Shown one piece after another: positions 12,714 to 30,174 of a DNA stretch of 64,000 nt; within the stretch, counting starts at the first letter, position 1; every line of letters begins with the position of its first letter. A program made the position numbers and the translations under genes. This DNA is from Infirmifilum sp. (GTDB lineage Archaea > Thermoproteota > Thermoprotei > Thermofilales > Thermofilaceae): assembly GCA_041287245.1 (NCBI GenBank), contig JBEULP010000117.1:256001-320000 (forward strand), given 5' to 3'. Under the pieces are notes generated by a model. That model was not told where the DNA came from and made no database searches. It was given only the letters and a program-made list of their open reading frames with translations.

Positions 12714-14048
12714 GTGCCTGAATTCTCGGATTTGCTCTTAGAAGAAGTAAAAAATAAAAAAAGCGAAATTGAGCGGGTTCTCGCCGGTGGGGATTCAATC
12801 TTCAAGGAGTATGCAGAGCTTGTGAGTAAGAAGTGGAACCCGCTTCCAGCGCCAACCGTTGTACCCCGAAACATTTATGCTGTTGATAGTAGTAGCGGGG
12901 TAATCGAGCTTCGAGCAGGAGGCGTTCTCCTTGTTCTACGGAGTCTCGCTTTCTCAACACCACTGTCAACGCATAGAAAGCTTGGTGTTGAAGCTTTCTA
13001 TCCTCACAGCATACGCGACTTTGAAGAATACGTGAGGTTGGCTCGGGAGCACTACGAGCACAATGTCGCTTTAGACGCTTTAAACGAAAACCCTTCTTTT
13101 ATATTGCTTGACGGCTCCCTTTACGGAAGAATGATACATGTTCTGCGGGAGCTTGACCTTGAGGAGAGGGAGGATTTCCTCTTTGAGTACGTAAAAACTT
13201 ACAGTCAGTTTCTCAGGAAAGCCCTTGAGAATAAAGTGACAGTAATCGGGGTCAGCAAGGATTCAAGATCCACAATTTTCAAGGAGGAGTTACTGAAGGA
13301 GCAAGTGTTGCAGGAAGCCAGTAGGTTTGGGGCAGATACATCTGAATTGGCCGGGTTGTGGGGGAGTTTACGCCGGCGACCACGTGAGACAATAGAGAGT
13401 GTTAGACAAAAAGTACGGTCCGGCGAGCTCCCGGAAAGGATCTTAGAGTATTTTCTCCAGGCTAGGTCTCACATTCCTGATTCTAAAATCATCCTTCTTT
13501 CCGGGGTGGAGGAGGGATTCTCGACTCCTATCTTGTTGACTCTCTCTAAGATAATTGCTGGGCAATTTGACTTGGTGCTCAGTGAGGATGCTACCATGCA
13601 GATCCATAAATTGTCGAAGGTTTTTTCCAAAAGCTATGATGCTGACCCTGAGGAGTTTGAGGCGAGGGCTAGGGAGCTTATAGGGAACCTGAGAAGCTAT
13701 CCCCCGGTCGCGGTCTTCTATACTCTCTTGGGGCCGAATGATGACCCTATCAGAGTAGATGTCGTGAGCCATGAGCTTCAAGAGTTTTTGTTTTTAAAGG
13801 ATAGGCCGAGCCTTGAGTCTTTGCTTTTCATGCCCTCCATCATGGAAAAGGAAATGATCCCAATGACACTTTCTTTACTTCAAAGTCTCTATGCTGGGTA
13901 TAGAGGGTATAACGTGTTACTGCTCGAGGCGGATCGTAGGGTTAAAATCACTGTAGATACTTTGGAAACTTATAGGAAAATCATTATGAGGGAGCTTGAA
14001 CTTTTAGTTTTACATTCGAGGGGTGAGAGGCGTGTCCACTATCCTTAA
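12714..14048 (+). CDS. nurA: NurA-family 5'-3' nuclease
   Basis: YAVDSS, LLDGSL, GVSKDSRS, GYNVLLLEAD motifs; context. Confidence 0.88.
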   Translation: MPEFSDLLLEEVKNKKSEIERVLAGGDSIFKEYAELVSKKWNPLPAPTVVPRNIYAVDSSSGVIELRAGGVLLVLRSLAFSTPLSTHRKLGVEAFYPHSIRDFEEYVRLAREHYEHNVALDALNENPSFILLDGSLYGRMIHVLRELDLEEREDFLFEYVKTYSQFLRKALENKVTVIGVSKDSRSTIFKEELLKEQVLQEASRFGADTSELAGLWGSLRRRPRETIESVRQKVRSGELPERILEYFLQARSHIPDSKIILLSGVEEGFSTPILLTLSKIIAGQFDLVLSEDATMQIHKLSKVFSKSYDADPEEFEARARELIGNLRSYPPVAVFYTLLGPNDDPIRVDVVSHELQEFLFLKDRPSLESLLFMPSIMEKEMIPMTLSLLQSLYAGYRGYNVLLLEADRRVKITVDTLETYRKIIMRELELLVLHSRGERRVHYP

Positions 14049-15642
14049 ACCGATAGGTAGGATAGTCGAGAAGGCGACTCCGGAAAGTTTTGTCTTCGTG
14101 ACCAGCCGCGATGAACATCCTCAAAAATTCGAGTATGTGGTGGTTAAATCGAAAGAGTATGTAAACGGTGTTCTGCGGGAGGTTGATGTACTAGCCCAGG
14201 TCGTAGGTGTTGTTTCATCAAGTTCTGCCTTTAGCTCCGAATATGATTACGGCACGTTGGAGAGGGTTTATAGGGCTGGAATAGATGACTCGAACATTCT
14301 CTGCGAAGCTAGAACTCTCGGCTACCTCTTAGAGGAGAACGGGCGAATCACGGTTCTTTCACCACGTAGGGCACTTTTCCCGGGAAACACTGTTTACCTA
14401 GCCCCAGACCAGCTAGTTAGGGATTTTTTCTCTTATAACCCTGACGAAGGAATCCACATAGGCTTTTTGGTCTCAAGGCCTAATGTCCCTGTTTTCCTCA
14501 CGGTAAACGGCTTTAGAAGGCACGTGGCTGTGATTGCTCAGACAGGAGCTGGAAAATCTTACACCGTGGGTGTCATACTTGAAGAGCTTCTGCGCCTCGG
14601 AGGCACGGTTATTGTAATAGACCCTCACGCAGACTATGTTTTTCTCAGTAGGACGCGTGATATGAGAAGACATGATTTCTCCGACAGGATCCTTGTCTTT
14701 CGAAATCCAAATAGTACGGGGCGTTATTCGAGAGAACAGCTTGATAATGTCCACGAGCTTGTCTTCAGATTTTCAGAGCTTAGGGGCGATGATATTGCAA
14801 GAATAGCAGGGATTCCCGAAAAGTGGACAAACGTTAGGGGAGTCATTATTAAAGCTGTTAAGAATCTCCGAGCTAAGAATCCTGATTATAGGGCTTACGA
14901 CCTGATAAAAGAACTGGAAAACATGGCGGAAAGTGGCGAGAAGAAGTATCGTTTAGCGGCGCAGAGCGCAGTTAACCATCTGCGAAGAATCCTGAACTAC
15001 AGTGTATTCGGGGATAGGACAACTCCACTTAAAGATGAAATACTGAAACCTGGATATGTGTCAATCCTTGACCTTTCAGGGTTAAATGACTCGAGCCAAG
15101 ACTACATAGTTAGCAGGGTTCTCGAGGAGCTGTTCTCACTGAAATACGGGATGGAGTTCCCATACCCGGTCTTCGTGGTTATAGAGGAGGCTCACAGGTT
15201 TATCCCAAGCCAGAAACTTAGAAGGAGGACGATGTCCTCAGACATAATAAAGACAATCACAGCAGAGGGGAGAAAGTTTGGCGTTTTCTTGATACTGGTA
15301 ACTCAGAGGCCCAGTAAGATTGATTCTGACGCGTTAAGCCAGTGTAATAGCCAGATAATTTTACGTGTAACTAATCCCTTGGATCAAATAGCCGTTCAGG
15401 AGGCAAGCGAGAGGCTAGGTAAGGAGATGATGAGTGATCTCCCGGGTCTAAACGTGGGAGAGGCTGTAATAGTCGGTGAGCTTACACGCGTTCCAGTGAT
15501 CGTAAAGGTGCGCGAAAGGAGAACACGGGAAGGGGGTGCTGACATAGACCTTGTAGAAGAGTTACGGAAGACGCGTGAGGAGTTTATGCTTTCAGCATCG
15601 AAGACCCCGCCACCCTCTAAGGGCGTGTTTTCAGAGGTGTAG
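14023..15642 (+). CDS. herA: HerA DNA translocase/ATPase
   Basis: N-terminal HAS-barrel-like region, AQTGAGKS, VVIEEAH, EGRKFG, TQRPS; start may be GTG 14032. Confidence 0.92.
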   Translation: MRGVSTILKPIGRIVEKATPESFVFVTSRDEHPQKFEYVVVKSKEYVNGVLREVDVLAQVVGVVSSSSAFSSEYDYGTLERVYRAGIDDSNILCEARTLGYLLEENGRITVLSPRRALFPGNTVYLAPDQLVRDFFSYNPDEGIHIGFLVSRPNVPVFLTVNGFRRHVAVIAQTGAGKSYTVGVILEELLRLGGTVIVIDPHADYVFLSRTRDMRRHDFSDRILVFRNPNSTGRYSREQLDNVHELVFRFSELRGDDIARIAGIPEKWTNVRGVIIKAVKNLRAKNPDYRAYDLIKELENMAESGEKKYRLAAQSAVNHLRRILNYSVFGDRTTPLKDEILKPGYVSILDLSGLNDSSQDYIVSRVLEELFSLKYGMEFPYPVFVVIEEAHRFIPSQKLRRRTMSSDIIKTITAEGRKFGVFLILVTQRPSKIDSDALSQCNSQIILRVTNPLDQIAVQEASERLGKEMMSDLPGLNVGEAVIVGELTRVPVIVKVRERRTREGGADIDLVEELRKTREEFMLSASKTPPPSKGVFSEV

Positions 15643-15648
15643 AAACTG

Positions 15649-16815
15649 ATGGTTTTGAAAATAGTCCACACGGCTGATAATCACCTGGATCCAAAGCTCG
15701 GTTATCTGGGTTCAAAGGTTCAGGAGAGGAGGCAGGACTTCTACAAGTCGTTTCTTAGAGTTGTTGAGTATGTACTGGAGGTTAAACCTGATATTCTTCT
15801 AATCTCGGGGGATTTGTTTGACTCGATAAACCCGAGAAACCCAGTAAGGACGAATGTCCTGAAAGCCTTTCGGAGGATCTCCTCCGAAGGAGTTAGGATC
15901 TTCTTAATAGGAGGTAATCATGACATGCCGCGTTCTCAGGAGGAAGGCATGTCACCCCTCGGTGAGGTAGAGGCATCGGGTTACGCAACTTTTCTCTCAG
16001 ACCCGGCTGTCTTCCAGGTGGAGCACTTGAAGTTAGAGGGGTTTGATGTGGCGGTAGCAGGGCTCTCCTTTGACCCCACACTTGATACAAACGTAAACCC
16101 CCTGCGCGCTCGGAACCTCAGGATACCTATTGAGGGAGATATTAACATTGCGATGCTCCACTACAATTTTGCTGGATTTAGAATACCTCCCAGCTGGGCT
16201 GCGCCAACAATTACGCCTGAAGATATTCCCCCGGGGCTTCATTACCTGGCTTTGGGTCACCTGCACCAGTTCACGCACACTACCGTGAAGGGTGCTCACG
16301 TTGTATATCCCGGCAGTACTGAGCGTAGAAGCTTTAACGAGGAGAGCGACGAGAAGAAAGGCTTCGTCCACGCTGAAATCGACGGCTCGGGGGTCGTTCA
16401 TCTTAAGTTTATTGAGACTCCAACCCGCCCCATGAAAAGCTTCGAGCTGAGTTTGGATGATAAGATAGAAGACCCGATAGCCCATGTTGTGAGTTCAATT
16501 CCTTTTATAGACCCTAAAGCTCAAGTCAGAGTAAAGCTTAGGGGCTCCCTACCTCTTGAAAAGATCCGTCTATATAGTAAGGCTGAACTTGTAAAGAGGC
16601 TGGAAAATCGATTTTTCCACGTTACCATAGATGATTCGGAACTAAAATGTATCCTCCGGGAAGTTAGGATCTCAGGCGAAATAAGCTCCCCCCTGGACTC
16701 CTATAGGTCTTATTTCGAGGAAGCTCTTAAGAACGCCGTGGGAGAGGAAGCAGAAACCCTAAGGCTAGCGTTAGAGCTCGGAATGGCTGTCTTGCAGGAG
16801 GTGGGGGCATGGTAG
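15649..16815 (+). CDS. mre11: Mre11/SbcD-family nuclease
   Basis: HTADNHL, GDLFD, GNHD, LGHLH, YPGSTER. Confidence 0.93.
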   Translation: MVLKIVHTADNHLDPKLGYLGSKVQERRQDFYKSFLRVVEYVLEVKPDILLISGDLFDSINPRNPVRTNVLKAFRRISSEGVRIFLIGGNHDMPRSQEEGMSPLGEVEASGYATFLSDPAVFQVEHLKLEGFDVAVAGLSFDPTLDTNVNPLRARNLRIPIEGDINIAMLHYNFAGFRIPPSWAAPTITPEDIPPGLHYLALGHLHQFTHTTVKGAHVVYPGSTERRSFNEESDEKKGFVHAEIDGSGVVHLKFIETPTRPMKSFELSLDDKIEDPIAHVVSSIPFIDPKAQVRVKLRGSLPLEKIRLYSKAELVKRLENRFFHVTIDDSELKCILREVRISGEISSPLDSYRSYFEEALKNAVGEEAETLRLALELGMAVLQEVGAW

Positions 16816-19337
16816 TCATAAGAAGCCTTAAGGCGATAAACTTCAGGAGGCTAAACATCCCCGAGCCTCTCAACCTAGATAAGGGTATTTTCATTATCAG
16901 GGGTAGGAACGAGGCGGGAAAATCAACCTTTATAGAAGCAATCCTTTTCGGGCTCTACGGGGATCATCAAGTAATAGGGGATCTGCGAGGAAACCCCAGG
17001 CGAGGTTATGCTGAGGTCGTCAACCACAGGTCCCGTAAAGCCCTAGTGGAGGTTGAGTTCGAGGTAGACAATAGGAGGTACCGCGTGGCTCGAGAGCTGA
17101 TCAGGGATGGAGACTCGATAAAACAGGTTAATGCGAGGCTTGTTGAAATAACCGAGGGTTCTGAGAGGTTACTAGCAACAGGTGTCAAGCCTGTTAACGA
17201 CGAGGTGCATCGTATACTTAAGGTTTCATGGAAGGAGATGCTTACCACTAACATTGTTGCCCAAAAGGATCTGGAGCGCATTATTCATCTGAATAAGGGA
17301 GATAGGGAACAGATAATTAATCTCATGATGGGTCTAGAGAGCTACAACAGGGCTATTTCTAGCCTCGAAGATAGGAGAAGAGAGGCGAATAGAAAGAAGG
17401 AAGGACTGGCCGAGTTGTATGAAGAAAAAAGGAAAAGGGTAGAAGAGTTGAAACTTAAATTGGATGAACTCCCTGGATTACGTAGTGAACTTCAAAAGAT
17501 CGAGGAACAGCTTCCCGGACTCAGGGTTCGAGAGGAGCTTCTTAAGAAGGCCCTAGACTATCTCACAGCCCTCAGACAAGTGTTATTGAAGAAGAAAGAG
17601 TTGGAGCACCAGGAAGCCTCTCTCGAGGATCGTATTGTAGAAAAACAGGGTCAGCTCTCAGAGACTCAAAAACGCATTAATACGAACCTGAAGAGCTTAA
17701 GGGATATCGAATTGCTTTTGCCTCAGCTACTTGATAAAGATGGACATCTTAGGCAAGAATTACAGAAACTACGAGAGGAATATGACGCTAGAAGCCGACT
17801 TTTCAGCGATATTCAATCCTATAATGAGTATCGCACTAAGGAGTTGAAGAGGATTGAAGAGCTAGACCGTGAAATAAGGACAATAGAAGAGGAAGTCAGA
17901 CATCTGGAACAAAGCAAGGAGGAGATTACTCTACTCGAGAAAGAGAAATCAGCGCTTAAACAAGAGATTTCTACGCTGAAAATACCTTCATGGTCGAAGC
18001 TCGGCTTTCCTGCCCTTGGCGCCGGCGTTCTTGCCCTCCTTCTCATGCCTCAGACGGTCATTGTACCTATTGGCTTTCTTCTTGTAGGAGGGCTTCTCCT
18101 TTACCTTGGCTATAGAAAGAAAATAATGACGCAACAGGCGCTTCTAGCGAGAGCCAGCGCTGTCGAGGTTGAAATAAGCTCTAAGGCTGCTCTTGTCTCC
18201 AGATTAGACCGAGAAAAGAAAAGACTGGAGGATCTTGTAGCAGAAAAGGCAGAGCTTGAGAAGCACGTTAAGGATATCGAGGATAAAATAAGAGGGCTAG
18301 GTGGAAGAGAGTCTACGCTTCCCATAGAAGAAGCCCTTAATCTCTTAAAAAGGGAGTTAGAAAGGCAAAGGGAACAGATTGAGAGACTGGAAGGTGAAGA
18401 AAAAACGGTTCAGGCTAATATAGAGGTTTATTTAAAGGAGCAGAAAAGGCTCAAGGAGGAAACTGAGCAGTTACAGAAGAAGCTCTTGGAGATACAGCAA
18501 CAACTAAAGGAGCTGGAGGAGCGAAAAAGAAAGGTGGTCAGCGAGCTAAACGAGATTAAGATCCCCCCGCCGCCCTCCGAATTAAAGGCGAATGTTGAGT
18601 ATGTTGAGATTGCGTCAGAAGAGCAGGATTCCGAGTTGGTTGACCAGATATACGAGAAGCTTAACTGGGAGTACCATGATATTTCAGTTAAAAGAGCGGG
18701 ACTAGAGAAGGAAATAGGAAACCTCAGGAAGCGTATCGAGGAGACTGAGCTGCTTAGGCCCCAGCTAGAGCAGCTGCAAGGCGAGCTTGAAAAACTCGGT
18801 GGGGAATTGGCGGGATTAGAGAAGGAGTTAAAGGCTATAGATAAAGCCATCCGGGCTATGCAGGAGATCTCCCGTAAGAGACGCGAAGCCTTTGCGCCCA
18901 GTGTTGAGCAATATATAAGCTGGGTGATAGGCTATTTCACCAATGGTAGATACAAGGCAGTTAGGCTGCAACCTGACACGTATGACCTCGAGGTGTATGA
19001 TTCGGAAGCAGGTAGATGGCTCGTAAGAGATATATATTCCGGGGGGACTAATGATCAATTCCTCTTAGCCCTGAGAATCGCATTTACCTTGGCGCTCTTA
19101 CCTAGTGCGAAGGGCTCATATCCGAAGTTTCTCGTCCTGGACGAGCCTTTAGGTTCGTCTGACGCCGAGAGGCGAGAGAGGATAATAAGTTTCTTTACGG
19201 GCGAGCTTGTCAGGTTTTTCGACCAGGTTTTCCTTATAACTCACGTTGAGATAGAGGAGCCTCCCGGCGTTACAATTATTCAAATAGAAGACGGGAAGGT
19301 TGTCGGGGTTCACAGGTCTGTTCCAGAGGAATCATAG
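16809..19337 (+). CDS. rad50: Rad50/SbcC-like SMC ATPase with hydrophobic hairpin in place of zinc hook
   Basis: Walker A GRNEAGKST, signature YSGG, Walker B LVLDEP, ITH; long coiled coils; no Cys; hydrophobic aa ~395-435. Confidence 0.88.
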   Translation: MVVIRSLKAINFRRLNIPEPLNLDKGIFIIRGRNEAGKSTFIEAILFGLYGDHQVIGDLRGNPRRGYAEVVNHRSRKALVEVEFEVDNRRYRVARELIRDGDSIKQVNARLVEITEGSERLLATGVKPVNDEVHRILKVSWKEMLTTNIVAQKDLERIIHLNKGDREQIINLMMGLESYNRAISSLEDRRREANRKKEGLAELYEEKRKRVEELKLKLDELPGLRSELQKIEEQLPGLRVREELLKKALDYLTALRQVLLKKKELEHQEASLEDRIVEKQGQLSETQKRINTNLKSLRDIELLLPQLLDKDGHLRQELQKLREEYDARSRLFSDIQSYNEYRTKELKRIEELDREIRTIEEEVRHLEQSKEEITLLEKEKSALKQEISTLKIPSWSKLGFPALGAGVLALLLMPQTVIVPIGFLLVGGLLLYLGYRKKIMTQQALLARASAVEVEISSKAALVSRLDREKKRLEDLVAEKAELEKHVKDIEDKIRGLGGRESTLPIEEALNLLKRELERQREQIERLEGEEKTVQANIEVYLKEQKRLKEETEQLQKKLLEIQQQLKELEERKRKVVSELNEIKIPPPPSELKANVEYVEIASEEQDSELVDQIYEKLNWEYHDISVKRAGLEKEIGNLRKRIEETELLRPQLEQLQGELEKLGGELAGLEKELKAIDKAIRAMQEISRKRREAFAPSVEQYISWVIGYFTNGRYKAVRLQPDTYDLEVYDSEAGRWLVRDIYSGGTNDQFLLALRIAFTLALLPSAKGSYPKFLVLDEPLGSSDAERRERIISFFTGELVRFFDQVFLITHVEIEEPPGVTIIQIEDGKVVGVHRSVPEES

Positions 19338-21529: not shown

Positions 21530-22516
21530 GTGGACGACGACTCATCGAGTAAACATCTTGTATCAAAGCTTCTAGGTTTACAGACCCCCCTTTATCGTCT
21601 TCACTCGATTACCAAGATTTTGCAACTTGATGATATACCTGTATACGTGAAATATGAAGGTGTAAACCCAACAGGAACGCATAAGGATAGGGCTGCCCGT
21701 GCCCACGTTGCAAAAGCTGTTGAGAACGAAATGAACACCATCACCGTGGGAACCTGTGGTAACTATGGAGTAGCCATCTCATACTTCGCCCAAGCAGCCG
21801 GTCTACGCTCGGTAATTTTCGTCCCGAGATCATATGAGAACAGCCGAGTAGAGGAGATGAAAAGATATGGAGCACAAATAGTATTAGTGGACGGCACCTA
21901 CGAGGAAGCTGTTGCCCTGAGTTCGCGGGCAGCCAGGGTAAACGGCTGGTATGATGCTAACCCCGGCGGTTACTCAGACAAGGTAAGCTTCGAGGCGTAC
22001 AGCTCCATAGCCCACGAAATAATCTATGAATTGGGGGATGCGCCTTACGCCGTCTCAATTCCTGTTGGAAACGGGACAACCCTTGTTGGCGTTTATCTAG
22101 GATTTCTAAAGGCATACAAGGAAGGTCTAGCCACTCGTATACCGAGGCTGGTCGCCGGAACGACCGTTTTAGGAAACCAGATTGCAGCCTCCTGGAAGGA
22201 TAGCTCTATTGAACCGGTGATTCTATCGCCTTCTTCTATTAAAGAAACACCTGTTAACGAGCCCCTTGTGTCGTACAAGTCTTTCAATGCCCTCGAAGCT
22301 TTGCAGGCCATTCGCTCCACTGATGGCAGCGTCTATGAGTTTAGCGATGAGGAAATGCTGGAGATGGCGCTTTTACTCCGCGCGGTCGAAAGAGTCGGGG
22401 TTTTGCCAGCCTCAGCAGCCTCTCTTCTAGCCTTGAGAAGCTTTAAAGCCGAGGAGGAAATTGAGGGTCCGCTGGTTGCGGTGATAACTGGAAGATGGAG
22501 AAAGATAAAGCACTAA
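21530..22516 (+). CDS. PLP-dependent fold-type II enzyme (threonine-synthase-like)
   Basis: KYEGVNPTGTHKDR, TCGNYG, PVGNGT, VITG. Confidence 0.88.
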   Translation: MDDDSSSKHLVSKLLGLQTPLYRLHSITKILQLDDIPVYVKYEGVNPTGTHKDRAARAHVAKAVENEMNTITVGTCGNYGVAISYFAQAAGLRSVIFVPRSYENSRVEEMKRYGAQIVLVDGTYEEAVALSSRAARVNGWYDANPGGYSDKVSFEAYSSIAHEIIYELGDAPYAVSIPVGNGTTLVGVYLGFLKAYKEGLATRIPRLVAGTTVLGNQIAASWKDSSIEPVILSPSSIKETPVNEPLVSYKSFNALEALQAIRSTDGSVYEFSDEEMLEMALLLRAVERVGVLPASAASLLALRSFKAEEEIEGPLVAVITGRWRKIKH

Positions 22517-23571
22517 TACTTGCCGAGGGGTTGTACGCTTCTACAGACGGGAAGACCGCTCACGGGCTTGTAAGGAAAAGCCTCAAGTATAAAATCGTAG
22601 GGGTTATCGACAGTACTCTCTCAGGCAGGGATGCCGGAGAGGTTTTAGACGGTAAGCCTCGAGGCATCAAAATATATTCTAATCTAAGCGAGGCCCTTCA
22701 AGAGCATCCCGACGTAAAATATCTTATCATAGGCGTGGCTACTCCGGGTGGAAAGTTACCCCCAGCTTACAGGAAGATAATTATGGAAGCGATTAAACAC
22801 GGCATCAGTATTGTTAACGGGCTTCACGAGTTCCTTAGTAACGACCCTGAAATAAGTAAGCTCGCATCCTCCAAAGGAGTAGAGCTTATTGATGTTAGAA
22901 AGATCTTCTACGAGACAAGGATCTTCTACACGGGTAAGATACGAGAAGTAAAAGCTTTAAAAATCGTTGTTATCGGGACGGACTCGGCTATAGGGAAACG
23001 TACAGTGGCACACATGATTACAGACGAGTTTAACGCTAGAGGCATTAAAGCCGTTTTTATCGGTACAGGCCAAACCGCGTGGATGCAAGGAGCAAAGTAT
23101 GTGTTCGTACTAGACTCGCTGGTAAACGACTTTATCCCTGGAGTATTAGAAGACACCGTTTGGCGGGCGTATACGGAGGAAAAACCCAAAGTGATCGTAG
23201 TTCCTGGCCAGGGTTCCCTTCTTCACCCTGTTTTTCCTGGAAGTTATGAAATACTTAATCTTCTAAGACCGGAGATTATTATTCTTCAGCATGCTCCCGG
23301 TAGGAAAACTCTTGACGGTTTCCCGGAATATGCCATGCCTCCTCTTGAAAAGTATTTCCGGCTTGTTGAATTAATAACAGACAGGCCGATTTTCGCAGTA
23401 ACCCTGAATACCGAGAGGCTCAGCGATGAGGAGGCTAGAAAGATTGCATTGGAGATTGAGAAAACCTACAATGTTCCAGTCGTAATACCTCTAAGTGAGG
23501 GTGTGGGACGCATAGTAGATCTAATTATGAAGAGTTACCCAGAGCTTGGTGAAGGTTCACGGCAAGCCTGA
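22495..23571 (+). CDS. DUF1611 family protein (DgcN-like D-Glu N-acetyltransferase)
   Basis: GKTAHGL, IGVATPGG, NGLH, GTDSAIGKRT, TGQT, GQGSLLHP, LQHAPGR. Confidence 0.88.
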   Translation: MEKDKALILAEGLYASTDGKTAHGLVRKSLKYKIVGVIDSTLSGRDAGEVLDGKPRGIKIYSNLSEALQEHPDVKYLIIGVATPGGKLPPAYRKIIMEAIKHGISIVNGLHEFLSNDPEISKLASSKGVELIDVRKIFYETRIFYTGKIREVKALKIVVIGTDSAIGKRTVAHMITDEFNARGIKAVFIGTGQTAWMQGAKYVFVLDSLVNDFIPGVLEDTVWRAYTEEKPKVIVVPGQGSLLHPVFPGSYEILNLLRPEIIILQHAPGRKTLDGFPEYAMPPLEKYFRLVELITDRPIFAVTLNTERLSDEEARKIALEIEKTYNVPVVIPLSEGVGRIVDLIMKSYPELGEGSRQA

Positions 23572-23600
23572 AGTGTTTTGACAAGATCGTCGTCGGCCCT

Positions 23601-24998
23601 GTGGTGGTTAAGCGGAGGTCTTTCCGTATAAACTACGAGCTACAAATGGAAGGGGTTCGAAAACAGTACACGCTTATAAACAGCTACCCTGAAGATGTTA
23701 ATATCAAAGGTGTGCATGAACTAGCCGTTCTTACCGGGATTATTCCGGCAATAAACTATGGGCTGTTTACAGATACTATTGAGATAAAAGCCCCCTTGCA
23801 CGAGCTCGACTACAAATACTTTCTAGACATGATGGATATCACCGCGAGAGATATTTTTGTAAATAGAATAATCAATAATACAGGGCTTATTCGAGAAGAG
23901 TATATACCAAGAGGGGAGATCGTTCCAGAGGATGCTAAACCTAAAGCTGAGGTTCAGGTAAGCGAGACCTTTACGGGTTCAGACCTGGATCTACAGCCAG
24001 ACTACAAGAAGTGTGTTGTAATGTCGTCAGGGGGCAAAGAAAGCCTCCTAACCTACGGTTTACTCGGCGAAGCGGGCTGCGACACATACCCTTATTTCGT
24101 CAACGAGTCCGGGAGACACTGGTTTACAGCTTTAACAGCCTACAAAGGGCTAGCATCGACAGATCCTAAAACCAGGAAGGTTTGGACAAATCTGGACAGG
24201 CTTTTTGCTTTCATCGAAAAAAACATGAAGATAGTTGTCCCCTACTATTGGAAGAAGAACAGAGAGATTTACCCTGTGCGTCTCTTCTGGTATGCCCATT
24301 ATATATTCTCTGTCCTCCCCCTCGGGTTGAAAAACAATATAGGCAACGTAACGATGGGAAATGAGTTTGACGACCCCACAGGCTTATCGTTTGAGTATAG
24401 AGGAATAAGACACTATTATGCCACATATGACCAATCCTTGGACTTCGACGACTACATGACAAGCTGGATGGCGCAAAGAGGGCTAAATATCAAACAGTGG
24501 TCCCCCCTCCGGCCCATCACACCTATAATTGTTCTCAGGATTCTCTTCAGACGATATGGAAGGCTAGCTGTATGGCAAACAAGTTGCCACTCAACACATA
24601 TTGAAAACGGAGTTGTAAAGCCCTGCGGCACATGCTTTAAGTGCAACGGGGTTCTTCTCATGATGCTGGCGGAAGGATTAGATCCCACTGTCATCAGATA
24701 TGAGAAGAGACATGTGGAGACACTACCCGAGAGATTAGAGAAGGGGCTTATAAGGCTAGAAGAATCGCTAGTTAAACACTCTTTGTACTTAATATCGGAG
24801 AGGGGGCTCTGGAGGCTCCCAGGAGCTCAACCCGTATGGCACGTGGAGATGATACACTTTGACAATATCAACTCCCGTCCCGATTTTATTCCTCACAAGG
24901 AGCTGCGAGAACACGTACTTGACATTTACGAGAAATATACCCGCGGTTATGTCAAACTCGTCGATGGTAAGTGGGTTGAAACGACCCGTCCGCCCTAA
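23601..24998 (+). CDS. PP-loop (adenine nucleotide alpha-hydrolase) protein, MurL/QueC-like; start possibly CTG 23568
   Basis: MSSGGKES PP-loop variant, GNE, WSPLR, TSCH...PCGTCFKC zinc motif; ~470 aa. Confidence 0.6.
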   Translation: MVVKRRSFRINYELQMEGVRKQYTLINSYPEDVNIKGVHELAVLTGIIPAINYGLFTDTIEIKAPLHELDYKYFLDMMDITARDIFVNRIINNTGLIREEYIPRGEIVPEDAKPKAEVQVSETFTGSDLDLQPDYKKCVVMSSGGKESLLTYGLLGEAGCDTYPYFVNESGRHWFTALTAYKGLASTDPKTRKVWTNLDRLFAFIEKNMKIVVPYYWKKNREIYPVRLFWYAHYIFSVLPLGLKNNIGNVTMGNEFDDPTGLSFEYRGIRHYYATYDQSLDFDDYMTSWMAQRGLNIKQWSPLRPITPIIVLRILFRRYGRLAVWQTSCHSTHIENGVVKPCGTCFKCNGVLLMMLAEGLDPTVIRYEKRHVETLPERLEKGLIRLEESLVKHSLYLISERGLWRLPGAQPVWHVEMIHFDNINSRPDFIPHKELREHVLDIYEKYTRGYVKLVDGKWVETTRPP

Positions 24999-27210: not shown

Positions 27211-28056
27211 CTAGGAGAGTATAACTAGAAGCCCACCTGGCGTCTTTAAGGTTCTAATGAGACCCCGCTCCTCCAGTCTTCTAATACGTCTGAGGGCTGT
27301 AGTCGAGGGAAGGTCGAGAGCCTCCCTTATATCCTTTAAGTAGGCCTTCCCCCCGCTTTTCTTTAGAAAATCTATAATCTCTTCCTCCTCCTCGGATAGC
27401 ACCGTGTATTTTCTACGCCTAAATACGAACCACAGAACCACAACTAGGATCAGCAGTGCGGTAAAAACACCTGCAACCATCCATGTGAACCCTAATCCTA
27501 GGCCTCCAGGTGTGTTTTGAGTGTGCCCCGTCATCGTACTCATGCCTCCTCCTCCCTCTTCTGTAGATACCTCAAGCAGGCTCAGGGAGAGGTCTGAGTC
27601 GAGCCGCGTGTAGTGTAAAACCGTGAAGCCCCCTTGTTTATTAATGGCGTCTGGTAAGGGCTCGACCCCTAATATCACATAGTCGCTTGACAGGTAAACA
27701 TCTAGGCTTTGATTCCATGCGGGTATAAGAATGAGAGATGGGTCTCCTTCAAATATAGATACGAATGTTACGTTTATAGTATCTCCACCTCGTATTAACA
27801 CAACCAGCGTCGAGTTTGATAGGTTGTATAATGGGACACCCTCGTTCTGGCTGGAGATTATGAAGGATCGAATCTTTCCTACGAGATTAAGCGTGAAGAC
27901 TGTGTCTTCCTGAGAGGAAACTTGAATACTCCCCTGAATGTTTTTGCCAGCAGTGATGATTATCTTCTCCACCCCGGTTAGGGGCTGTGCAGCAGCAAGA
28001 AGAGGACTCAAAAGCAGCAACGCTAAATAAAAAATAATCATCTTCTTCAATTGCAC
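27211..28056 (-). CDS. Membrane-anchored winged-helix regulator (signal peptide, extracellular domain, TM, cytoplasmic wHTH)
   Basis: N-terminal signal, TM FTWMVAG...WFVF then RRRK, then LSEEEEEIIDFLKKSGG...LPSTTALRRIRRLEERGLI. Confidence 0.78.
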   Translation of the reverse strand: MQLKKMIIFYLALLLLSPLLAAAQPLTGVEKIIITAGKNIQGSIQVSSQEDTVFTLNLVGKIRSFIISSQNEGVPLYNLSNSTLVVLIRGGDTINVTFVSIFEGDPSLILIPAWNQSLDVYLSSDYVILGVEPLPDAINKQGGFTVLHYTRLDSDLSLSLLEVSTEEGGGGMSTMTGHTQNTPGGLGLGFTWMVAGVFTALLILVVVLWFVFRRRKYTVLSEEEEEIIDFLKKSGGKAYLKDIREALDLPSTTALRRIRRLEERGLIRTLKTPGGLLVILS

Positions 28057-28095
28057 ATATCCCTGAATAAGGGAGCTATATTTAAGCTTTAAAGG

Positions 28096-30003
28096 TTATT
28101 TCTTGAAGATGTTGGAGAGGAATCTAGCGATGCTGTCTAGGAAAAGGGCGATTCTAATGTAAAGATTTAGGATCCAATCCCGAAGTTCATCCCACAGGCT
28201 TTTGCTCGATGCAGGCTGTGGGCTTGGATTTGTCGAGGCAGTAGCGTTGGCTGGAGTTGACACGGGGCTAGACCCTTGTTGTAAGGCTAAAGAGGTGAAG
28301 TTTTGACCTTTGGCGAGGTCCACCACAAGGCTTCCTAGCTCTGTTGCTAGTTTGAGAAAAGTGAGCTTATCAGTATCAGTGCTGGAATATAGGCTCTGAT
28401 TGTAAAAGTACAGGCTGACGAGATTGTCTTGGTAGTTGGAGGCGATTTCCAACGCCCTCTTAGACGAGACGTCCACGTAAACAGGTGACCCGACTGCCTT
28501 CTCTTGGAAGTCAAGCATGGAGGCTTCTGCAAGCGCGATGCTTCTAGCAGCCGCTATTGCGGCAAGCAAATGATACCCGGAACTGTAAAGAGAGGCAGAG
28601 GCAGCGTAATAAGTATTGGAGAGATCTAGGGTTTGCGAGGAATAACCTGTCTGTGAAAGAACTGAATAAACGTATGGCCATGTGGATCGTGCTATCGAAA
28701 GATAGGTGCTAGCCTCTTTAGAAGCATCGATCGATCCACCTTGTGGGAGCCCCTCAAGCCAGAGTTGAGCCTCATCGAGTAATGCAGAGGCATATGCAAG
28801 GTTTTGAAGAGCTGTTTGCGGGTCAGTGTTCCAGGTAGAAGCTGAAGCATTGAAGAGCCGTGAAGCCCTTATAACAAGGTCTCCTGATATGACGAGATAG
28901 TTGAGTTCTAGGAAGTTTCTAGGATATATATTCTCAGTGAGCCTAGTGTAATTGGCTATCGCGTTTCGCAGGGCGCTAACCTGTGGATCAAGGCTCTTGC
29001 CCTGCGAATAGTCTATAAGAAGCCTAATCCATCTCGCTACGGCGATACCTGAGGTTAGAAGAGGTATTGTTCCAATATTTCTTGGGCTTTTCATAGCAGT
29101 GTCTATGTATGACGAGGCATAACTGTTAAGATAGTTGAGTAAAGCATTTTTTGTGAAGGAGGTCAGGGAGGATTGGTTAACATATGCTTTAGCCTGGGCG
29201 ACCTCACTAAGAGCCTCGCTCTCGAGGATGTCCCACACTCTTTGTATTTTCGCCCTAGCCTCAGTGCTCAGTGTAGGTTGAGCGAAGGTTTTAGGTGGAG
29301 TTTCATATTGGAAGAAGTAGTGGAGGGCATCTTGAATGGTTGAGATTTCGACGACGCGAAGGTTCCAGTTTTTCAAAGCATAGTCTGATAAGTTCAGAGT
29401 GACGGGTTGTGTGGAATACACTTGGAAGGGACCCACGCGGCGTACGACTACTTTATAAGTTGTTACGACGCTTTGCCCCGGAGGCACGAGAAATAGCTTT
29501 ACCCCACTGGACGACATGGCCTGTGCTTTCTCATATACCCCGCCCACAGGTCCCACTGTTCCGTCAGGTGAAATCATCCCCGTGACGGCAATAGTCCTGT
29601 TTATTGGTTTGCCAGTCAAAGCTGAATACACTGCTACTGCCATTGCTACTCCGGCACTCGGTCCTCCAATGATGACTGCGTCGCTCTTCACCTTGAAGTA
29701 AAAGTTATAGTTCTCAAACTTAACGCCTAAGATGTTACATATAACTCGCGTAGCAGTTGTAGCAGCCCCTTGGAAATCTTCCTGGGTTAGCGAGTAAGTC
29801 GATACGTAAACATCTCCCCACCCCCTAGTTACAAAAACGCTTATGTTTGTCGCTGACCCCACATAACCGGCATCTGTCTGGGACACGGCTGGAGCTAGGA
29901 TCCAAGCAGAGCCTACTATTTCCAGTTGGCTATCTGGCGCTGCTTGTAGAGACGGAGCAATGACAAGGAGAATTAAAATTCCTAACGCTAGTACCTTTCT
30001 CAT
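28096..30003 (-). CDS. Secreted Lon-type (S16-like) Ser-Lys dyad protease lacking AAA domain
   Basis: Signal peptide; GGPSAG, TGMISPDGTVGPVGGVYEK; long helical C-terminal region; ATG 30003 preferred. Confidence 0.85.
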   Translation of the reverse strand: MRKVLALGILILLVIAPSLQAAPDSQLEIVGSAWILAPAVSQTDAGYVGSATNISVFVTRGWGDVYVSTYSLTQEDFQGAATTATRVICNILGVKFENYNFYFKVKSDAVIIGGPSAGVAMAVAVYSALTGKPINRTIAVTGMISPDGTVGPVGGVYEKAQAMSSSGVKLFLVPPGQSVVTTYKVVVRRVGPFQVYSTQPVTLNLSDYALKNWNLRVVEISTIQDALHYFFQYETPPKTFAQPTLSTEARAKIQRVWDILESEALSEVAQAKAYVNQSSLTSFTKNALLNYLNSYASSYIDTAMKSPRNIGTIPLLTSGIAVARWIRLLIDYSQGKSLDPQVSALRNAIANYTRLTENIYPRNFLELNYLVISGDLVIRASRLFNASASTWNTDPQTALQNLAYASALLDEAQLWLEGLPQGGSIDASKEASTYLSIARSTWPYVYSVLSQTGYSSQTLDLSNTYYAASASLYSSGYHLLAAIAAARSIALAEASMLDFQEKAVGSPVYVDVSSKRALEIASNYQDNLVSLYFYNQSLYSSTDTDKLTFLKLATELGSLVVDLAKGQNFTSLALQQGSSPVSTPANATASTNPSPQPASSKSLWDELRDWILNLYIRIALFLDSIARFLSNIFKK

Positions 30004-30174
30004 ATGCTTATGGGCAAAAAGCAAATTTAAAAAAATTATGTATCTTCAGTCCTAACAATCTCCTGGGTCTTCGTTGTCTGCTAACGTCAAGGCCCGTCGA
30101 TTTTTACCTCTGCACATCCTTTTCCCTGGGAGACAAAACAGAAACTTTTAGAATATCTCTAAGACTTTTAATTA

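Follow-up and report, generated by a model that had tools for sequence, protein, structure and literature searches.

The 64,000-nucleotide stretch of the Infirmifilum sp. genome (Thermofilaceae, Thermoproteota) considered here and called the window below (contig JBEULP010000117.1 of the assembly GCA_041287245.1, positions 256,001 to 320,000) harbors a compact operon of three genes on the plus strand. Gene 1 (21530..22516) encodes a 328-aa pyridoxal phosphate (PLP) enzyme matched by the PALP and PRK06381 profiles, gene 2 (22495..23571) encodes a 358-aa protein comprising the domains DUF1611_N and DUF1611_C, and gene 3 (23559..24998) encodes a PP-loop/zinc enzyme of the QueC superfamily. The overall verdict is that the operon is real, ancient, and uncharacterised, and that its genes are kept together across many archaea. 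A first-pass annotation of the window had recognized the trio and proposed that gene 3, as a relative of the epimerase MurL, substitutes for the enolase-family enzyme DgcA in a D-glutamate route; as a whole, its observation of the locus is confirmed and its interpretation is supported in part.

Gene layout and conservation of the operon

The open reading frames (ORFs) are present as described, with genes 1 and 2 overlapping by 22 nt, and both motifs highlighted earlier in gene 3, i.e., SSGGKES and TSCH-x11-CGTCFKC, were found at residues 142–148 and 327–348. Depending on the start codon, the gene 3 product is 465–479 aa long. GTG at 23601 is the first start codon of a canonical type (465 aa), but homology extends upstream of it: matches to relatives begin at 23565, and the conserved motif LKCFD is located upstream of the GTG and after an in-frame stop, with no ATG, GTG, or TTG in between. 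Since the ACG at 23559 aligns with the starts of related loci, several of them from Thermofilaceae (TTG in 5/13, ACG in 2/13), translation probably begins at this non-canonical codon, which would yield 479 aa. A GGTGA-like ribosome site lies just 5' of the ACG (23559–23561). The nearest named homologs of gene 3 come from Infirmifilum and Thermofilum.

To describe the neighborhood, 113 loci with gene 3 were collected, a count from which three fragment loci and another five belonging to a sister family are excluded; the metagenomic loci are the best 80 of 402 matches. Neighbors were counted only in loci with enough flanking sequence, and near-duplicates are included; the loci are not independent. 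On this basis, gene 3 is immediately preceded by a DUF1611 gene in 102 of the 103 loci, and a PLP gene is found upstream in 77/81, in line with the expected conservation of the trio across archaeal loci. This linkage is far beyond chance. A fourth recurring member, missed previously, is a GNAT-type acetyltransferase gene downstream of gene 3 (71/95 loci); one GNAT query had a match at the end of gene 3 as well, but the distance rule should exclude such matches, and the count agrees with the locus maps.

The same picture emerges at the genome level. The Thermococci-containing phylum was covered with 133 genomes: 28 have gene 3 at E < 1e-20, in part as broken copies, 28 have DUF1611, and 27 have both; all 22 PRK06381 genes scoring above the cut-off stand beside gene 3. 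In Thermoproteota (301 genomes), 18 possess DUF1611, of which 13 possess gene 3 as well, one as a fragment at a contig end. The operon genes are kept in all nine Thermofilaceae sampled, two of which have gene 3 separated from the PLP–DUF1611 pair. At the same time, four genomes of the Thermococci-containing phylum (G352, G368, G370, and G410) carry broken or decaying copies, so the operon is dispensable there.

Gene 3, a member of the QueC superfamily

At E ≤ 0.1, profile scans placed gene 3 in no family of either Pfam or NCBIfam, and neither its sequence nor its profile significantly matched the PDB sequences. Its AlphaFold model is confident (predicted local distance difference test, pLDDT, 96), and its top matches among solved structures are tied: QatC (Z 13.9, root-mean-square deviation, rmsd, 4.7 over 303 aligned residues of model positions 1–407, the N-terminal extension included), QueC (Z 13.3–13.5), and Cap9 (Z 13.4, rmsd 2.6). 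No MurL structure was among the fold-search matches. A PP-loop of the form [SA]SGGK[ED]S is present in 80/91 family sequences, the four-cysteine motif SCH-x11-CGxCxKC in 89/91, and NE[SA]GxHW in all 91. A PP-loop combined with a four-cysteine site on a QueC fold characterizes the QueC superfamily, and the gene 3 family has both, with predicted binding of ATP and zinc. Canonical QueC is defined in PMC13329287 by the motifs YxQxHxxE, VPxRN, and YPDC, each of which was found in 0/91 family sequences. The catalytic core, PP-loop, and four-cysteine zinc site are shared with QueC, Cap9, and QatC (PF06508 superfamily; PDB 3bl5, 2pg3, 9nto, and 9y02), whereas the window protein has SGGKES in place of SGGxDS and a C-x12-CxxCxxC spacing. 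The N-terminal domain, when folded by itself (pLDDT 90), resembled an RNase H-like topology too weakly for an assignment (Z ≤ 5.5, TM-score about 0.33).

The kinship to MurL, claimed in the first-pass annotation, holds as a distant one. It was judged by the MurL profile NF041275 (cut-off 700 bits), by ESM Atlas features, and by the sister family. In the Atlas, gene 3 scores 0.96 to MurL-domain clusters, with 217/256 features shared and 28/30 matches in that set. Family members match NF041275 weakly (about 18–30 bits, in the PP-loop and zinc regions) and the sister family reaches 45 bits; the window protein gave no match to this model at E ≤ 0.1. The domains MurL_N and MurL_C (PF26299 and PF26298) were absent from the Pfam scan results, and precomputed PF26299 is attached to one of 120 gene 3 homologs. 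Judging by sequence comparison, the kinship appears real but distant. Overall, the sequence and the model suggest that gene 3 is a QueC-type core with QatC-like extensions and a distant MurL similarity, being itself neither MurL nor QueC nor QatC, and it is predicted to be a carboxylate-adenylating enzyme.

The sister family (L049–L053), which carries no name, aligns with the gene 3 family at E 4e-43 (HHalign). In a quick tree of 47 rows, the archaeal and the creatininase-fused forms of gene 3 together occupy one side of a branch with a support of 100, opposite the sister family. The latter features FGKDS, GNExSC, FDQS, and WCxxCSKC, comes from DPANN, CPR (candidate phyla radiation), and Bathyarchaeia, and shows no DUF1611 linkage in any of its five loci inspected. 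Homology searches counted 762 matches to the archaeal-type gene 3 and 2907 to the creatininase-fused form, the latter number possibly including more distant relatives. No archaeal-type, bacterial-type, or sister-family sequence was found in viral contigs, and none on plasmids except via the creatininase domain.

Fusions of gene 3 offer a glimpse of its partners. A creatininase-type amidohydrolase domain is present in 116 of the best 120 relatives of the creatininase-fused protein P0137, and the PP-loop and Cys4 motifs are intact in all of those carrying it; this amidohydrolase is a candidate deacylase. DUF1611 and gene 3 form one frame in P0138 and in L065/L070 (one Conexivisphaera-like lineage), and a fusion of gene 3 to a methyltransferase was encountered in a single case. 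A 1212-aa ORF in L007/L066 was considered as a triple fusion and rejected, the PLP gene being in another frame. Degenerate homologs also exist (P0154, P0163, P0172, and P0192), which lost the PP-loop and kept most zinc cysteines; two of these possible pseudo-enzymes are still fused to creatininase.

Several roles known for the relatives of gene 3 were rejected. Canonical QueC or archaeosine function is at odds with the absent QueC motifs and with the separate QueC encoded in 4/5 operon-bearing genomes tested; the present genome is the one without canonical QueC (best PF06508 match at E 0.002). An anti-phage role in the manner of QatC or Cap9 was discarded in view of the absence of qatABD and CBASS (cyclic oligonucleotide-based anti-phage signaling) genes among the recurring neighbors; que genes do not recur there either. 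A role in peptidoglycan synthesis was dismissed as well: Mur_ligase_M gave no match in this genome (99.99% complete), while 12/14 control genomes matched.

Partners of gene 3 in the operon and beyond

Gene 1 matches PALP at E 7e-58 and the NCBIfam model PRK06381 (NF004996) at 414 bits versus a cut-off of 266, but it reaches only 88 bits against the generic thrC model TIGR00260 (cut-off 167). The protein displays the features of fold-type II, with the Schiff-base Lys52 in PTGTHKDR and a substrate loop T-C-G-N-Y containing the conserved Cys76. The nearest solved structures are those of the threonine synthase ThrC (2zsj and 1uim, E about 1e-26), where the loop has Thr at the site of this Cys. Of the 75 distinct PLP sequences that the loci provided, 68 keep Cys-Gly-Asn in the substrate loop. 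Homoserine dehydrogenase was not found in this genome, while 14/14 controls matched (homoserine kinase was not searched for), and the genome has four further PALP genes; hence, threonine synthesis is unlikely, a role also rejected in view of the score below the TIGR00260 cut-off. The label "threonine synthase" of the PRK06381 subfamily is probably wrong: gene 1 shares the PALP fold with ThrC and with fold-type II racemases and lyases, but its subfamily, unlike ThrC, is found only beside gene 3 among the 133 genomes searched. Cys76 occupies the position which we take to be equivalent to Ser84 of serine racemase. The latter residue is described as the second, re-face base of that enzyme (PMC6424897). 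A plausible, if weak, case can be made that gene 1 is a racemase or a D-specific lyase acting on a free amino acid with the use of Lys52 and Cys76.

Gene 2 has a Rossmann-like N domain and a P-loop domain with GTDSAIGKRT (DUF1611_N at E 8.7e-31 and DUF1611_C at E 3e-65 in Pfam; related PDB entries 2g0t, 7xrj, and 2obn). It scores 166.7 bits against the DgcN model NF041892, far below the cut-off of 480. In a 44-row tree, the DUF1611 proteins linked to gene 3 form one clade (support 100/99), the sister of which is a clade paired with Orr-like racemases (100/98), and DgcN is distant from them on a long branch. Gene 2 is a distant relative of DgcN and a predicted N-acyltransferase, and the former suggestion that glutamate is the substrate did not gain support from either the DgcN score or the Orr-like partners of the sister clade. 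These partners and a second acetyltransferase may fit a diamino acid better than glutamate.

The assumption that DUF1611 normally partners an epimerase proved sound, other clades being found beside DgcA, Ala-Glu epimerases, or Orr-like racemases. In the seven plasmid loci read out of 109 records, DgcA directly follows DUF1611 in one (Pseudoalteromonas), a dipeptide epimerase and a D-aminoacylase accompany it in another (Haloferax), and an Orr-like PLP racemase stands beside it in three. Two further plasmid loci have no racemase annotated: L139, where DUF1611 belongs to a nonribosomal peptide synthetase (NRPS)/P450 cluster on a Bacillus plasmid, and L142, a Burkholderia plasmid locus with two ATP-grasp genes flanking DUF1611. 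Among the five Thermoproteota with DUF1611 and without gene 3, an Ala-Glu-epimerase-like gene is adjacent in three, one gene away in one, and not nearby in one; in the sole such genome of the Thermococci-containing phylum, an Orr-like racemase gene adjoins DUF1611. Hence, a racemase or an epimerase is a usual, if not constant, companion of DUF1611, and gene 3 would fill that slot here.

More distant neighbors suggest a catabolic flavor. In 13/76 loci, both an Ala-Glu-epimerase-like and an M14 peptidase gene occur within 3 kb; an MFS transporter gene is found upstream in 14/66, and a D-Ala-D-Ala dipeptidase gene near the operon in one. In all nine linked Ala-Glu-epimerase-like genes examined, KxK and DxD are intact. 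The M14-like peptidase (450 aa, e.g., L102:4074-5429 and 12 similar loci; Atlas 0.98) lacks a Pfam or PDB sequence match and is paired with the epimerase, both converging on the operon. In L039, L054, and L055, which represent two lineages, an Asparaginase_2/isoaspartyl-peptidase gene lies no more than a few kb away from either the operon or gene 3. Elsewhere in the window, a run of four genes at 12714–19337 looks, by eye, like nurA-herA-mre11-rad50.

Possible function of the operon and competing explanations

By membership, the operon is not MurL, canonical QueC, QatC, DgcN–DgcA, or ThrC. MurL is comparable to gene 3 in size but works with MurD2, whereas gene 3 partners a PLP enzyme, DUF1611, GNAT, and the amidohydrolase. 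Yu et al. (2023) reportedly described the DgcN–DgcA D-glutamate route including a deacetylase step. The route is also cited in PMC12363236 and PMC10845958. As in that route, a candidate epimerase gene directly follows DUF1611, and in some lineages a hydrolase is linked (D-aminoacylase in Haloferax); the differences are a separate DUF1611 clade scoring below the DgcN cut-off, the additional PLP enzyme and GNAT, and an ATP-using PP-loop enzyme in the slot taken there by an enolase-family racemase. By resemblance, the operon would be closest to the DgcN–DgcA logic run with an ATP enzyme of the MurL/QatC type.

It seems quite possible, if short of probable, that the operon salvages a D amino acid or a peptide fragment with a D residue by acylation, activation with ATP, inversion, and deacylation. 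N-acylation of the D amino acid or the D-residue-bearing fragment would be the task of DUF1611 or the linked GNAT, the gene 3 enzyme would adenylate the carboxyl group with ATP and then invert the alpha carbon, and the amidohydrolase would remove the acyl group. We infer with good support that gene 3 may catalyze ATP-dependent carboxylate activation, because QueC and Cap9 perform it, MurL is proposed to, and the QueC core fits. The support for net inversion is moderate, since a fusion between an amide hydrolase and an activator that spends ATP would be easiest to understand in a net isomerization. Activated N-acyl amino acids racemize readily through oxazolone. The racemase and epimerase partners of other DUF1611 clades also support this sequence of steps. 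MurL itself uses up ATP with release of AMP and works in one direction, carboxylate adenylation being the proposed step (PMC8788868 and PMC5808125).

A number of observations weigh against the salvage route. MurL operates in the direction from L to D, while salvage requires D to L. The MurL similarity of gene 3 is weak, the window protein escapes the MurL model altogether, and the sister family scores higher against it. No deacylase linked to the operon was found in the archaeal loci examined, and the two creatininase-family genes of this genome are both unlinked to it. The best solved matches include amide-making enzymes (QueC and Cap9 make amides, and the QatC reaction is described as not settled; PMC13329287 and PMC13279940), and plasmid DUF1611 occurs in ATP-grasp or NRPS biosynthetic clusters in 2/7 loci. 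Finally, an Ala-Glu-epimerase-like gene is present elsewhere in the genome in 8/9 Thermofilaceae, including this one (230–262 bits, cut-off 500), and an enolase-family epimerase stands beside the operon in the 13/76 loci mentioned above, so a second epimerase may be redundant.

The latter findings bear on the idea of a strict replacement of DgcA, in which gene 3 would epimerize N-acetyl-glutamate. As stated previously, the window contains no DgcA-like gene, as evidenced by the ORF list and by a genome-wide MR_MLE search with three matches, all outside it. One of them, an Ala-D/L-Glu-epimerase/DgcA-like gene with KxK and DxD motifs, resides at 245113–246189 of the contig, about 10 kb left of the window; the nearest enolase-family epimerase gene on the contig is thus about 32 kb from the operon, and no dgcA adjoins it. 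Additionally, an OSBS (o-succinylbenzoate synthase)/N-acylamino-acid-racemase-like gene (TIGR01928 above cut-off) was noticed at contig 28033–30083, overlapping an upstream ORF which appears GNAT-like by eye; with these two, the organism possibly has a second route of acylation and racemization. Across the Thermococci-containing phylum, the DgcA model matched 12/133 genomes at E ≤ 1e-10 but 0/28 of those with gene 3, a count amounting to little more than one observation given that these 28 genomes are kin. It speaks for replacement in that phylum, as does the position of gene 3 directly after DUF1611, mirroring DgcA in Pseudoalteromonas. In Thermofilaceae (8/9) and in the 13/76 loci with a linked epimerase, the two enzymes co-occur, and gene 2 is remote from DgcN both in score (167 bits versus 480) and in the tree, so strict replacement is very improbable. 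These counts indicate that some lineages can do without the enolase-family enzyme, while others have it clustered with the operon; it fits that this enzyme handles dipeptides upstream and gene 3 performs a different step.

Amide ligation, another point overlooked earlier with respect to QatC and Cap9, is a serious rival to inversion. In this case, the PLP enzyme would use beta-replacement to produce a non-standard amino acid, which would be acylated by DUF1611 and GNAT and then ligated or amidated at its carboxyl group by gene 3, with the creatininase domain recycling or maturing the product, e.g., a stress solute or a protein modification. The close folds of QatC, QueC, and Cap9, the two plasmid DUF1611 genes in ATP-grasp and NRPS surroundings, the resemblance of two acetyltransferases plus a PLP enzyme to a multi-step pathway, and the epimerase often already present in the genome all agree with it. 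Still, glutamine amidotransferase, carrier, and ATP-grasp genes do not recur among the neighbors, the nearest DUF1611 clades pair with racemases, and all nine Thermofilaceae keep the genes though the lineage is described as relying on others for key amino acids (PMC5823990); such small-amide biosynthesis is, on balance, rather unlikely. Clearly less probable is the repair of isopeptide or lactam bonds in heat-damaged peptides, with gene 3 and the hydrolase carrying out ATP-driven cyclization followed by hydrolysis and the PLP enzyme acting as a racemase or D-specific lyase. The Cys conserved just before Gly-Asn of the PLP loop, the isoaspartyl-peptidase genes near the operon or gene 3 in three loci, and the methyltransferase fusion are compatible with repair, but the peptidase link is rare, the fusion is single, and in the 4/81 loci where the PLP gene is absent upstream, DUF1611 and gene 3 are mostly still there.

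No description of the operon was found in the literature searched; DUF1611 and creatininase go unmentioned in the main texts of PMC13329287 and PMC13759103, the supplements of which might list members. With close archaeal-type members in the hundreds and matches to its creatininase-fused form in the thousands, the gene 3 family still lacks a family model and is mislabelled as QueC, creatininase, or threonine synthase. Three orphan subfamilies would gain a function whether gene 3 is an epimerase or a ligase, and the question can be tested in cultured Thermococcus species. MurL, the mechanism of which is still not settled, has been called the first ATP-dependent epimerase (PMC8788868); if gene 3 inverts N-acyl amino acids, it would provide thermostable enzymes with small substrates for the study of adenylation-driven epimerization and would add a route of D-amino-acid turnover in anaerobic peptide degraders. 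The broadest claim, possible but doubtful, is that a second, large family of epimerases driven by ATP in one direction begins with gene 3 and, with DUF1611, the PLP enzyme, and the fused ring-opening amidohydrolase, would constitute a deracemization pathway. If this is true, archaea and bacteria of hot springs and sediments would turn D-amino acids from peptidoglycan or heat-aged peptides into usable L-forms.

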